NCBI RefSeq assembly: GCF_014230055.1
Contig: NZ_JACHVA010000046.1
Location: 91,963-155,962 of the forward strand
Source: Puniceicoccus vermicola
GTDB lineage: Bacteria > Verrucomicrobiota > Verrucomicrobiia > Opitutales > Puniceicoccaceae
Length of the DNA: 64,000 bases
Direction of reading: 5' to 3'
This document shows, one piece after another, positions 22,158 through 24,682 of this stretch; the stretch's first letter is position 1; each line of letters begins with the position of its first letter. The notes beneath the pieces are model-generated. The model worked only from the letters and a program-made list of their open reading frames with translations, was not told the DNA's origin and made no database searches. Position numbers and translations under genes: made by a program.

Positions 22158-23558
22158 TCATCTAGTTCGCTTCCTCCCCAAGCATGGAAATCCAAGTAAA
22201 GGCTCTCGATCACCCAAGGCCAACTCTACATTCTCTGATTTAATGAAGCTGCCCTCTGCCTCATACTCTTCCTCACACGCCGCCAATGAAAAACGGGTGC
22301 GCGCATAGTTGTCATTTGAATCGTGCCTGAAGGGATAAGCCCGAGCGAGAAACTCGTTCACAGACGCAGTAGCCGCACGCATGTTCAAACTAATCACTGC
22401 GGGGGCTTCCTCATGCACGCCCTTAATGTATCCATCGTTGAGCTCTTGCTCATGTGCAACGGGATCCGCATTCCGCAAATACTCAGTTCTGAGACTCTCG
22501 GGCGTATACACTTCTCGATCACTGAGGGTTGCCCCTCCAGGTTTTACGTAATCAATACGACCACAGACGTCTCCGATGGCATATGAAGACTGAGTCTTTC
22601 GAGTCGGAATCGTTACACCTGCATCAAATAGAGGCATCAAGAAGCGGCTCGCAATCAAGTCGCACACCTGTCGAGCCTCCAGTGAATCTACACAGGAAAA
22701 GAGGACGTCGCATTTTGAGACCCTTAAAACGGCTTCCCGGGTTAAGATAGACTCTGAAACCGCCTCAACCACTCCGCACCCCCGATGCGATACAATCGAC
22801 TCAGCAAACATATCAACCTTTAGGCGCTCCTGCTCCGCATCATTAACTGTTGAGTTGAGTATGCGGTTCAAGTTCTTAAATTCGACTCGATCAAAGTCGA
22901 TTAGCACGATTTCACCAAAGCCTAGGCGAGCTAGTTGCTCAGCGACAACAGACCCAATGCCTGAGACCCCGACAACCGCGACAGAGAGGCGACTCAATTC
23001 TACAGTCATCTGCGAAGTAAATGCGACTGGACGTTCTAACGAACTGTTCGAATGGAGTTTATCTCCCCACCAATAGGCAATATCATCGCCGATCACTGAA
23101 ACCAGCGACACTTCCTGCTTTTCCATACTGGGTTGATAAAAGCGTGCGCGCATCGCGCCATTCCCTACCATAATTGCAGAACCATGAGGAACTTCAATTG
23201 CTTGGTGAAGGCATGGGATAACACTGCAATCGCTGTCATCATCAGTGTCCGAGAAGCTCAAAAAGCCTCCGGGGTGCGAATGCACTAACAGAATTGAAAG
23301 ACTCTCCTGTTCGGCTTGATCAATCGCGGTCTCCAGATACTCACCAGACCATGAAATATATTCTGGCCTGCGCTCGCGGCACTGATCCTGAGGGACTAAT
23401 ATCAGCTCGCGAGCGAGATACCGCTCGCCTTCCGGACAGCTCTCCACTCGCTTACACAATAACACTGCAGCGGATTCGTATCCATCACCAGGCAAAAGGT
23501 GCTGTTTTAAGCGAGCATGCATTTCACCCGCGATTAGTAGTCGAGATCCTAGATTCAT
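22158..23558 (-). CDS. JAB/MPN (JAMM) metallopeptidase fused to an E1-like ThiF/MoeB adenylyltransferase domain
   Basis: JAMM motif E...HSHPGGFLSFSDTD. ThiF Rossmann motif VAVVGVSGIGSVVAEQLARLGFGEIVLIDFDRVEFKNLNR. The likely start ATG at 23558-23556 overlaps the stop of the upstream gene (ATGA). The ORF track extends to 23666. Confidence 0.8.
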   Translation of the reverse strand: MNLGSRLLIAGEMHARLKQHLLPGDGYESAAVLLCKRVESCPEGERYLARELILVPQDQCRERRPEYISWSGEYLETAIDQAEQESLSILLVHSHPGGFLSFSDTDDDSDCSVIPCLHQAIEVPHGSAIMVGNGAMRARFYQPSMEKQEVSLVSVIGDDIAYWWGDKLHSNSSLERPVAFTSQMTVELSRLSVAVVGVSGIGSVVAEQLARLGFGEIVLIDFDRVEFKNLNRILNSTVNDAEQERLKVDMFAESIVSHRGCGVVEAVSESILTREAVLRVSKCDVLFSCVDSLEARQVCDLIASRFLMPLFDAGVTIPTRKTQSSYAIGDVCGRIDYVKPGGATLSDREVYTPESLRTEYLRNADPVAHEQELNDGYIKGVHEEAPAVISLNMRAATASVNEFLARAYPFRHDSNDNYARTRFSLAACEEEYEAEGSFIKSENVELALGDREPLLGFPCLGRKRTR

Positions 23559-24682
23559 GATCCTTCGACCTCCTTGAGAATCGCTCCCTCTACAAGAGCT
23601 AGGTGAGTCACGACTGAGTCTGTATTGGGATTCCACTTTGAGGCAGGTCCACGATGACGTGACCAACGACTAAATGTTGTCCCATCAATTTGTTCATGGA
23701 CCTGAGTCGCTGCAATCGCACGCCCAGAAGTCAGGGCGAGAGGAGGATTAGTGTAGAACATGTCCATTTGAGCCTTCGGGTAAGTCGGAGGAACATCCAT
23801 CGCTAGCACTATAGACGATACTGTATATCCCTCAGGCAACTGATAGTCTGGGATTAGTATCCATCGCCGCCGTCCATCTAGGACCGTCTCCCATAGGGCA
23901 TGGTTCTCATCGAGATAAGCCTCATCCCCTGGGAGCAGATCAAACTCACGGCGGAGTTCCGTCGATACCGAACCATTATCCACCGCCTTAGGCGTCAGAC
24001 GGATTTTCTCGATACCGCGCCGAGTCAGATCCACAATCGTGTCCATAGTAATAGGCATTTTCGGCTCACCTTTAATCTTAAGGAAGATCTGCCACTCAGC
24101 CGTAGTATCAAACCCTGCTTGCTCTAGAGCATCTTTAGTCAGGATGGTTGGTGTTATAGATTCAACCTTCACGCCTTGGACATTCAGCAGCCAAACTTGA
24201 TGCTCAGTATAGAAGTCTTCAACGCCTGAGGCATCTAGATCGACAATCTCATGATCCTTAATCTCGCGATCTGCCTCTTTGCGCAGCTTGAGATACAGTA
24301 TATGATCACTTGGAACGTCCGCTAGCTTACGAATTTGACCGCCAGTGATCACTGCGCATGGCCACTCGAAGCGCTGGCCGTTCAAAACGTAGCGGTATGT
24401 TCGATCACTCTCCACGATAATGAACTTTCTCACACTCTCATCTAGGTTTACCACCTCCTGAGGCGATATATCCTCAAGCGATCCGTCATCTAGAACAGAC
24501 AGCACGATTGCGGCATTTGTATTGGTAATTCCGGCAGTAGAAGCGAGTTGCGCCCCCGTAGGTGTGCCGTCTTCGATTGAAATTGGCCGAAAGGCCAATG
24601 ATTTGTCAGCTACCTCAATATTGTAGCCAGAGGATGGGCGCTCTCGCGCCTCGGATGTGTTTTTATTTGGCATCACCTTCAC
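23555..24682 (-). CDS. Multi-ubiquitin-like (tandem beta-grasp) protein with a C-terminal E2/UBC-like (Prok-E2-type, possibly UEV-like) domain
   Basis: Two repeats with beta-grasp-like periodicity (NIEVADKSLAFRPISIEDG...; YRYVLNGQRFEWPCAVITGGQIRKLADV...LYLKL). The C-terminal region WILIPDYQLPEGYTVSSIVLAMDVPPTYPKAQMDMFY resembles the UBC core but has no obvious catalytic Cys. Translationally coupled to the JAB-E1 gene. Confidence 0.55.
   Translation of the reverse strand: MKVMPNKNTSEARERPSSGYNIEVADKSLAFRPISIEDGTPTGAQLASTAGITNTNAAIVLSVLDDGSLEDISPQEVVNLDESVRKFIIVESDRTYRYVLNGQRFEWPCAVITGGQIRKLADVPSDHILYLKLRKEADREIKDHEIVDLDASGVEDFYTEHQVWLLNVQGVKVESITPTILTKDALEQAGFDTTAEWQIFLKIKGEPKMPITMDTIVDLTRRGIEKIRLTPKAVDNGSVSTELRREFDLLPGDEAYLDENHALWETVLDGRRRWILIPDYQLPEGYTVSSIVLAMDVPPTYPKAQMDMFYTNPPLALTSGRAIAATQVHEQIDGTTFSRWSRHRGPASKWNPNTDSVVTHLALVEGAILKEVEGS

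Follow-up and report, generated by a model that had tools for sequence, protein, structure and literature searches.

A 64-kb stretch of the Puniceicoccus vermicola contig NZ_JACHVA010000046.1 (the window; coordinates refer to the whole stretch, position 1 being its first letter) very probably carries an intact Type I Bub (bacterial ubiquitination-like, formerly 6E.1/DUF6527) operon, bubAB-bubCD-bubE. The operon faces a divergently oriented set of three genes that encode a predicted sigma-factor-like protein, a small protein here called X and the metallopeptidase CapP (Table 1). The preliminary description of this DNA had picked out two minus-strand open reading frames (ORFs), both of which are present, and had read them as a ubiquitin-like (Ubl) conjugation module of the Bub kind built from a JAB-E1 and a multi-Ubl/E2 fusion, an assignment that Pfam and PDB matches bear out. 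Its two-gene module is in fact a three-gene operon with a three-gene regulator, since both bubE and the CapP-containing trio (24810-26617) had been overlooked. The domain architecture, the orthology to solved structures, the conservation of catalytic residues, the translational coupling and the linkage to the regulator trio and to a DNA motif are all directly observed. The locus shows all the sequence features that define Type I Bub and are open to an in-silico check, and it is therefore assigned to this family.

The Type I Bub family, previously known as 6E or DUF6527, has been described by Ye, Gong, Chambers and Corbett (bioRxiv 10.1101/2024.11.21.623953; Nat Struct Mol Biol 2026 33:71; hereafter Ye et al.) with the BubAB, BubCD and BubE proteins of Citrobacter sp. 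RHBSTW-00271 as its reference operon (PDB 9ea4, 9ea5, 9ea8, 9eae, 9eav, 9d59). Type I BubAB proteins consist of one to three beta-grasp Ubl domains fused to an E2 of the Prok-E2_E type, BubCD proteins of a JAB/JAMM peptidase joined to an E1 adenylation domain of the homodimeric kind, and the cysteine-less, ATP-dependent conjugation chemistry of the family runs via tyrosine and serine oxyesters (Ye et al., 10.1101/2024.11.21.623953). The alignments of the same study comprise 107 unique BubAB and 137 unique BubCD proteins. The biochemistry has been established for the Citrobacter and E. coli systems only. P. vermicola is not among the entries of its Table S1, where one Verrucomicrobium entry is found. 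The P. vermicola operon has the three genes, the gene order, the fusions and the three-beta-grasp Ubl of the Citrobacter operon as well as all of its catalytic, zinc-binding and Ca2+-binding residues, at about 60% identity across full-length BubCD, BubA and BubB as read off the alignments. It differs from it in its host, a member of the Verrucomicrobiota as opposed to the Gammaproteobacteria, and in that no tRNA-inserted mobile element is evident at the P. vermicola locus.

The genes of the operon are coupled by ATGA overlaps, one between the bubAB stop and the bubCD start, which had been noticed before and is real, and a second between the bubCD stop and the bubE start. The bubAB start is likely the ATG at 24673 and not the GTG at 24682, because both the homologues (alignment A5) and an independent Logan gene call begin there; BubAB residue numbers given below follow the 375-residue open frame counted from the GTG. 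The bubCD frame starts at the ATG at 23558 rather than at the TTG at 23666. The homologues in the residue alignments (A5, A6 and the BubE set) come from other contigs. Of the Pfam families that the preliminary description had proposed to search for, Multi_ubiq, Prok-E2_E, ThiF and Prok-JAB are found in the two larger ORFs, and these assignments surpass the Pfam thresholds by wide margins.

The bubAB product combines Multi_ubiq (5.5e-26) and Prok-E2_E (3.2e-35) matches on one ORF. Over residues 21-237 it can be aligned gap-free to the Citrobacter BubA structure 9d59 with its three domains (E=1e-63), and this alignment ends on the C-terminal glycine of that chain, so that the two tandem beta-grasp repeats reported earlier become three. 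Residues 162-237 correspond to Citrobacter BubA 155-229 (PDB 9ea8 is also matched), and the beta-grasp domains furthermore match the Ubl structure 8u38 of the Bil system (2.1e-16). Gly237 (codon 23972-23974, in the context ...AVDNG|SVST...) aligns with Citrobacter G229 and is invariant in alignment A5; it is predicted to be both the JAB cleavage site and the conjugation terminus. Cleavage of a Ubl-E2 precursor by JAB, which had been suggested as part of an unusual chemistry, is the published mechanism of Type I Bub, with the glycine at the BubA/BubB junction as the only documented site (Ye et al.). A cleavage site after each Ubl repeat had also been envisaged, but only this junction glycine is documented, and the BubAB sequence contains no sign of cleavage between beta-grasp domains. 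The side chains that were mutated or described at the Ca2+ site of the Citrobacter three-beta-grasp Ubl (Ubl3), D30, T32, E62, E68, D85, D130 and E147 (Gong et al., Structure 2025), are all present (7/7) at an offset of +8, as D38, T40, E70, E76, D93, D138 and E155.

The E2-like part of the same ORF contains the UBC-like segment VPPTYPKAQMDMFY and matches Citrobacter BubB (9eav_D, E=2.2e-32). It is devoid of cysteine, as had been observed: the sole cysteine of the 375-residue frame, C109, lies inside a beta-grasp domain, and residues 238-375 contain none. It had been speculated that such an E2 would leave transfer to the E1 alone, yet the equally cysteine-less E2 of the Citrobacter orthologue is active through Ser333 and His335 (Ye et al.), both of which are conserved here. 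The BubB motifs RWSRHR and (L/M)DMFY line up with Citrobacter BubB S333/H335 and D299, respectively. The corresponding residues Ser341 (codon 23660-23662), His343 (23654-23656) and Asp307 (23762-23764) are invariant in A5 and are predicted to form the E2 active site. By analogy, the P. vermicola E2 would thus be an active enzyme and not a decoy.

BubCD matches the crystallised Citrobacter BubCD (PDB 9ea4) over residues 3-463 with E=1.7e-154. Its JAMM motif HSHPGGFLSFSDTD and its ThiF/MoeB-type E1 motif VAVVGVSGIGSVVAEQLARLGFGEIVLIDFD are present as described before, and the protein matches Pfam Prok-JAB and ThiF. The zinc site and base of the peptidase (E28, H93, H95, D106), the adenylation residue R232 and Y377 are invariant in alignment A6 and match Citrobacter E28, H91, H93, D104, R227 and Y370, respectively. 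Y377 (codon 22428-22430) lies in the sequence ...ELNDGYIKG..., which aligns with ...LERGYITG... of Citrobacter, and is the predicted oxyester acceptor of the crossover loop, a loop that is cysteine-free because residues 333-427 contain no cysteine. The third gene, bubE, encodes a DUF6527 protein (Pfam PF20137, 7.4e-24) whose residues C56, C58, C60, C98, S91 and H101 do not vary among seven BubE sequences, members of Type II operons included. They correspond to the published C4 zinc site (C57/C59/C61/C99) and to the protease dyad S92 and H102. The N-terminus of BubE forms an amphipathic, hydrophobic extension, in keeping with the family description.

From the literature on these close homologues we infer the chemistry of the P. 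vermicola pathway. The JAB domain of BubCD would cut BubAB after Gly237 to yield a three-beta-grasp BubA and free BubB, whereupon the E1 domain would adenylate the C-terminal glycine of BubA and form a BubA~Tyr377 oxyester. BubA would then move to Ser341 of BubB as a second oxyester, assisted by His343 and Asp307, and from there to lysines of target proteins, from which BubE, as a Ser91/His101 protease with a C4 zinc site, would strip it again. The three-beta-grasp Ubl of Citrobacter forms Ca2+-binding filaments (Gong et al., Structure 2025), and P. vermicola BubA probably also forms Ca2+-dependent filaments.

Two other identities for the conjugation genes have been considered. ThiF/MoeB-type NCBIfam models and MoeB and ThiF structures also match the E1 domain, which would suit a sulfur-carrier cassette with a beta-grasp protein of the ThiS/MoaD type as the substrate of a ThiF/MoeB-type adenylyltransferase in thiamin or molybdopterin synthesis; the preliminary description had named such a cassette as the outcome that would overturn its proposal. 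The best NCBIfam score, however, is 62.3 bits against a cut-off of 275 and covers the Rossmann core only, whereas Citrobacter BubCD is matched at full length. The beta-grasp partner is fused to an E2 and is no lone sulfur carrier, and neither ThiG, ThiH, MoaE nor a similar Pfam family occurs among the ORFs scanned. With scores under the cut-off and no synthase genes among these ORFs, the sulfur-carrier identity is effectively refuted and its probability negligible.

A thioester-based system of the Bil (bacterial ISG15-like, BilABCD) type or of the Cap2/Cap3 type found in the cyclic oligonucleotide-based antiphage signalling system (CBASS) is very improbable as well. Bil systems share the multi-beta-grasp Ubl, E1, E2 and JAB with the P. 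vermicola operon, their Ubl domains are related (8u38), and the Rossmann core of BubCD matches PADLOC 'E1-E2' (CBASS Cap2) models. Bil is defined by an E1 with inactive and active adenylation domains (IAD-AAD) and a catalytic cysteine domain, a cysteine-containing E2 and a separate JAB (10.1101/2024.11.21.623953); its chemistry relies on catalytic cysteines and thioesters, its genes are separate, DUF6527 is missing and anti-phage activity has been demonstrated. The P. vermicola locus, in contrast, has a single adenylation domain fused to JAB, no cysteine in either crossover loop or E2, and a DUF6527 protein. The PADLOC matches span only about residues 186-309, and no CD-NTase domain was found among the ORFs scanned. 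Architecture and absent cysteines thus rule out both a Bil and a CBASS Cap2/Cap3 identity. PADLOC v2 (2023) contains no Bub models and so cannot call the system; apart from the partial CBASS 'E1-E2' matches it returned none for BubAB or BubE. The Type II Bub operons (BubA, BubBD and BubE) have the Ubl family, BubE and the Tyr/Ser oxyester logic in common with P. vermicola, but in them E2 and E1 are fused (BubBD) and JAB is typically missing, unlike the JAB-E1 and Ubl-E2 fusions seen here. This latter combination, earlier thought to be an uncommon packaging, is the defining architecture of Type I Bub. Since the fusions and the cysteine-less E2 are published hallmarks of the family, the locus is not new in kind: the preliminary description chose the right family but overrated its rarity, and the cysteine-less chemistry that it set apart from the textbook one is already explained in the literature. 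The flagged module itself therefore holds little that is new and adds a verrucomicrobial orthologue to an already published family.

The trio and its conserved DNA motif are the only part of the locus that goes beyond the literature consulted. The regulator operon is divergent from bub, begins 136 bp from the bubAB start and comprises three genes, the second of which (X) overlaps the end of the first by an ATGA. The third gene product is a clear CapP orthologue by sequence, matching the PADLOC capP model over positions 13-241 of 242 (2.7e-56), Pfam Peptidase_M78 (1.8e-19) and the PDB entry 7t5t, 'CapP', over residues 40-258 (E=1.9e-19). It belongs to a class of proteases that are activated by single-stranded DNA (ssDNA) and control CBASS and other immune operons. 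The first gene is predicted from its modelled fold to encode a sigma-factor-like protein. X belongs to a rare family, with six relatives retrieved by a word-index search of 5.8 billion proteins and 31 cluster representatives by a full HMMER scan; its C-terminus carries a conserved PLAARNF(K/R) sequence followed by a helix. X is a candidate substrate of CapP and could be an anti-sigma factor or, alternatively, a repressor of the CapH kind.

In 10 of 10 distinct related loci the sigma-like/X/CapP trio adjoins a Bub operon. These are the window itself (met again as L001), L002 and L003, which share one module, L004-L006 and L008-L011. The Bub layout beside the trio is Type I in L002-L004, L006 and L009, Type II-like (Multi_ubiq, DUF6791-ThiF and BubE) in L008 and L011, and a split form in L005 and L010; the Type II-like operons thus carry the same regulator as P. 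vermicola. The split layout (L005 4786-6952, L010 4219-6793) consists of a Multi_ubiq protein of about 236 residues, a separate protein of 134-135 residues that is probably the E2, and a ThiF protein that gives no Prok-JAB match; no bubE was called in either locus, and this may be a further variant of the operon. Nor was a bubE called after bubCD in the metagenome contigs L002 (3795-4357) and L003 (6163-6725), whereas the near-identical module of L004 has one, so that the gene may be lost, disrupted or uncalled in the former two. A scan of genome contigs with BubCD returned one locus, from a Pseudorhodoplanes metagenome-assembled genome, in which the trio motif is missing and the bubAB frame is fragmented; it was of no use for placing the island boundaries.

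The intergenic control region between the two operons contains a box, GTCCTAAGTG, in inverted orientation, and the exact 12-mer AGTCCTAAGTGA occurs at just these two box sites in the window. The inverted pair is spaced by 67-70 nucleotides (nt) in all close loci. Allowing for one mismatch or fewer, it is present in 10 of 10 distinct loci at a distance of 67-76 nt, always between bub and the sigma-like gene; the other matches found at this stringency lie outside the control region in a few loci and all carry one mismatch. In most loci TTTTTCGGCG precedes the box on the bub strand at a spacing of 15 nt, and a degenerate mirror copy of this arrangement faces the sigma-like gene. The intergenic sequence flanking the boxes has diverged between loci. 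Base changes that affect only one side of the boxes are found at L008 and L010, and sequence recognition is therefore favoured over an RNA or DNA hairpin. With its two parts, fixed spacing and orientation towards a gene, the motif looks like a promoter for the sigma-like protein of the module itself. An operator role for the bub-side box is also possible because this box ends just 6 nt before the bubAB ATG. A generic sigma-70 promoter scan of the control region found nothing.

Table 1 Coordinates of the Bub module, its control region and the flanking repeats in the window
Feature	Position	Strand	Description
bubAB	23555-24673	minus	Ubl (BubA) and Cys-less E2 (BubB) precursor, 372 residues from the ATG at 24673
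BubA part	23972-24673	minus	three beta-grasp domains, Ubl3 type, ending at Gly237
BubB part	23555-23971	minus	E2/UBC-like domain, Prok-E2_E family, no cysteine
bubCD	22158-23558	minus	JAB peptidase-E1 fusion, 466 residues, ATG at 23558
JAB/JAMM domain of BubCD	23061-23558	minus	about residues 1-166, Pfam Prok-JAB 5.8e-07
ThiF-type E1 adenylation domain of BubCD	22158-23027	minus	about residues 178-466, Pfam ThiF 5.2e-24
bubE	21805-22161	minus	DUF6527 serine protease, 118 residues
Divergent control region	24674-24809	none	contains boxes GTCCTAAGTG and CGCCGAAAAAT
Box GTCCTAAGTG, bub side	24680-24689	minus	ends 6 nt before the bubAB ATG
CGCCGAAAAAT	24705-24715		read on the bub strand as TTTTTCGGCG-N15-GTCCTAAGTG
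Box GTCCTAAGTG, sigma side	24748-24757	plus	faces the sigma-like gene
Sigma-factor-like gene (predicted)	24810-25433	plus	207 residues, two helical domains and a disordered acidic linker
X	25430-25825	plus	acidic helical protein of 131 residues, rare family
capP	25841-26617	plus	258 residues, M78 zinc metallopeptidase, HELGH motif, C-terminal GAF-like domain
27-nt inverted repeat, left arm	21775-21801	plus	ATATCTTTATATTTTGCGTTTGATCCC; begins 3 nt beyond the bubE stop
27-nt inverted repeat, right arm	26634-26660	minus	16 nt after the capP stop, then hairpin
Host dispersed repeat	14189-14500, 17799-18012, 20348-20580, 21566-21801, 28680-28956		five copies on the same strand

In the regulatory logic proposed here, the sigma-like/X/capP operon would sense DNA damage. 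Upon DNA damage, ssDNA-activated CapP would cleave X and both operons would be switched on via the TTTTTCGGCG-N15-GTCCTAAGTG elements. In its most specific form, which is offered tentatively and is rather doubtful, the trio is a distinct switch dedicated to Bub and no variant of CapH+CapP, in which CapP cuts X, a new class of substrate, at ...AARNF|K/R, predicted as F111|K112, and so frees or activates a highly divergent sigma factor for the mirrored TTTTTCGGCG-N15-GTCCTAAGTG promoters. Published regulators comprise the classes CapH+CapP, CapW and CapK+CapS, in place of which P. vermicola has the sigma-like/X/CapP trio. The CapH+CapP pair (Lau et al. 2022; Calloji et al. 2026 preprint) resembles it in the orthologous CapP, in the divergent upstream placement and in a conserved Phe-Lys/Arg of X that is followed by a C-terminal helix, like the cleavage site of CapH. 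It differs in that X has no recognisable helix-turn-helix (HTH) and that an additional sigma-factor-like gene heads the P. vermicola operon. An uncharacterised gene of the sigma-70 family next to capH and capP is noted by Lau et al. (2022) for 24 CBASS systems. A further parallel is provided by extracytoplasmic function (ECF) sigma/anti-sigma modules under regulated proteolysis. The trio has in common with them a two-domain sigma-like fold, in P. vermicola a predicted one, a small partner encoded on the same transcript, a dedicated protease and two-part motifs that resemble promoters in mirrored arrangement, one of which lies before the module's own operon. The P. vermicola protein is distinguished from these by the absence of a sigma-70 region 2/region 4 signature at the sequence level, and its protease is a cytoplasmic ssDNA-activated M78 enzyme as opposed to a membrane-bound site-1/site-2 cascade.

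Several findings weigh against the switch or against this reading of the operon. Sequence and profile searches of PDB, Pfam and NCBIfam gave no match for the sigma-like protein, and an hhalign comparison with E. coli RpoE placed region 2 as expected but at a non-significant probability of 1.8%. Neither an HTH, nor CapH, nor any other significant match was found for X in Pfam, PADLOC, NCBIfam or PDB, with deeper profiles or with the C-terminal peptide alone. Because X is not a recognisable CapH and the sigma-like call comes from a predicted fold only, the regulatory part could work otherwise. At about 60% identity to the characterised orthologue the kinetics and targets of the P. vermicola proteins may differ as well. 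Finally, none of the Bub operons tested to date is reported by the authors to protect against phage (10.1101/2024.11.21.623953).

Two versions of the regulatory scheme compete over the nature of X. In the first, which is possible if somewhat short of an even chance, X is an anti-sigma factor; once ssDNA-activated CapP has cut it, the freed sigma factor would use the bipartite elements to transcribe bub as well as the operon that encodes it. The predicted fold of the first protein, the sigma-X gene order with its ATGA overlap, which is typical of sigma/anti-sigma pairs, and an X with no detectable HTH agree with this version. So do the two-part motifs with their fixed 15-nt spacer, each pointing at a gene like a promoter, and the one-sided changes in the boxes at L008 and L010, which argue for sequence recognition and against a hairpin. 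The missing sigma-70 signature speaks against it, as does the low confidence of the AlphaFold2 model of X (pLDDT 61.8), and a downstream box only 6 nt before the ATG on the bub side would imply a nearly leaderless mRNA.

In the second version, a tentative one that we consider slightly less likely still, X is a divergent DNA-binding repressor of the CapH type that occupies both GTCCTAAGTG boxes until CapP removes it, and the sigma-like protein is an accessory or a required activator. The characterised CapP proteins do cut a DNA-binding repressor, CapH, and residues 13-67 of X give a marginal profile match to the winged helix of linker histones (E=0.011). The conserved ...NF|K/R and helix at the C-terminus of X also resemble, by resemblance only, the F82|R83 site of CapH and the helix that follows it. 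Inspection suggests operator-like positions for the boxes: on the sigma side the box is flanked by candidate -35 and -10 hexamers, and the second box covers the region of the bubAB start. CapH, however, is a small repressor with an XRE-type HTH and, at its C-terminus, a dimerisation domain that CapP cleaves, whereas X has no significant HTH or CapH match in any of the libraries searched. Moreover, neither box is itself a palindrome, and the distance between them is about 68 bp.

As to what the Bub pathway of P. vermicola is for, the tie to anti-phage defence drawn in the preliminary description holds for Bil and not for Bub. A general role as a DNA-damage or stress-response protein modifier instead of a defence system is conceivable, if not quite probable. 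Apart from the lack of phage protection by the Bub operons tested, no recognised complete defence system lies immediately beside the module in the window, and control by a DNA-damage sensor fits either role. The related loci point the other way. Homologous modules sit in unrelated neighbourhoods with many toxin-antitoxin and defence-type genes, next to AbiEii/AbiEi, Zeta/PhdYeFM, PIN, TIR, HNH, DUF4011 helicase and integrase genes; the AbiE, TIR, Zeta and PIN neighbours suggest defence, and CapP-type regulators are mainly tied to immune operons.

The module had also been described as part of a repeat-flanked accessory island. Its accessory status in P. vermicola is supported by the GC-poor regulator genes (43-47% GC as compared with 50-62% elsewhere in the window), by the varied neighbourhoods of homologous modules and by the closeness of BubCD to proteobacterial proteins, as might be expected after horizontal transfer: BubCD is about 58% identical to a protein of the Pseudorhodoplanes metagenome-assembled genome and similarly distant from that of Citrobacter. 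Repeats do abut the module, yet they belong to a dispersed family of the host and are no signature of the island; among the larger ORFs scanned in the window no integrase or transposase was found. The six genes are bracketed by the arms of a 27-nt inverted repeat, 24/27 identical by our own count. The left arm is the 3' end of the dispersed-repeat copy at 21566-21801, which also provides a terminator-like hairpin on the minus strand after bubE. Homologous modules of other organisms do not have this 27-nt repeat, which is therefore of host and not of module origin; for the same reason the repeat was rejected as a terminal inverted repeat intrinsic to the module.

The dispersed repeat is intergenic, about 190-330 nt long and has a core, AACAAGGACCGGCGACTTCAGTCGCCGC, that forms a GC-rich hairpin. 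Its copies are confined to 15 kb of the window (14.2-29 kb), where a glutamate dehydrogenase gene is flanked by them as well. Rfam at gathering thresholds returned tRNAs only, so that the dispersed repeats match no known RNA family. Further short repeat families occur in the same stretch (14510-14735, 16369-16465 and 17475-17691). A 94-nt direct repeat (28577-28670 and 30984-31077, 94% identity) overlaps with its second copy the 3' end of the ORF at 30993-31889, and the first copy may be a duplicated gene-end fragment; neighbouring repeated pairs are found at 27418-27456/30802-30840 and 27615-27658/30886-30929. A gene located past the Bub module and before the next repeat copy (27883-28470, plus strand) encodes a protein of 195 residues, the N-terminal ~50 of which match PADLOC PD-T4-9_A (1.7e-08). 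The protein belongs to no Pfam or NCBIfam family, and its gene is not conserved beside homologous modules.

Elsewhere in the window two adjacent ankyrin-repeat proteins of 633 and 503 residues are encoded at 6922-10331 (plus strand), followed by a ResIII/DEAD helicase (10739-12475), and an ORF of 2050 residues spans 32124-38276. Nine tRNA genes (Leu-aag x2, Arg-acg x2, Gln, Met, Leu-cag, Phe and Asn) are packed into about 800 bp of the minus strand (40382-41177), some of their predicted boundaries abutting or overlapping. A high-GC block (42729-52744, about 58-63% against 50-56% nearby) contains minus-strand ORFs of 2514 and 1090 residues.

For the Bub family, the operon of P. vermicola indicates that the catalytic residues hold at about 60% identity across phyla, while the questions of BubA targets and phage defence are not made easier by this locus. 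The regulator is the useful lead, as it comprises a compact conserved cis-element and three small proteins that lie beside Bub in every distinct related locus examined. It offers a tractable case in which DNA-damage sensing of the CapP type may act through a sigma-like factor instead of an HTH repressor. If the proposed switch is true, a DNA-damage signal would lead to the sigma-factor-dependent, possibly leaderless, expression of a ubiquitin-like system.

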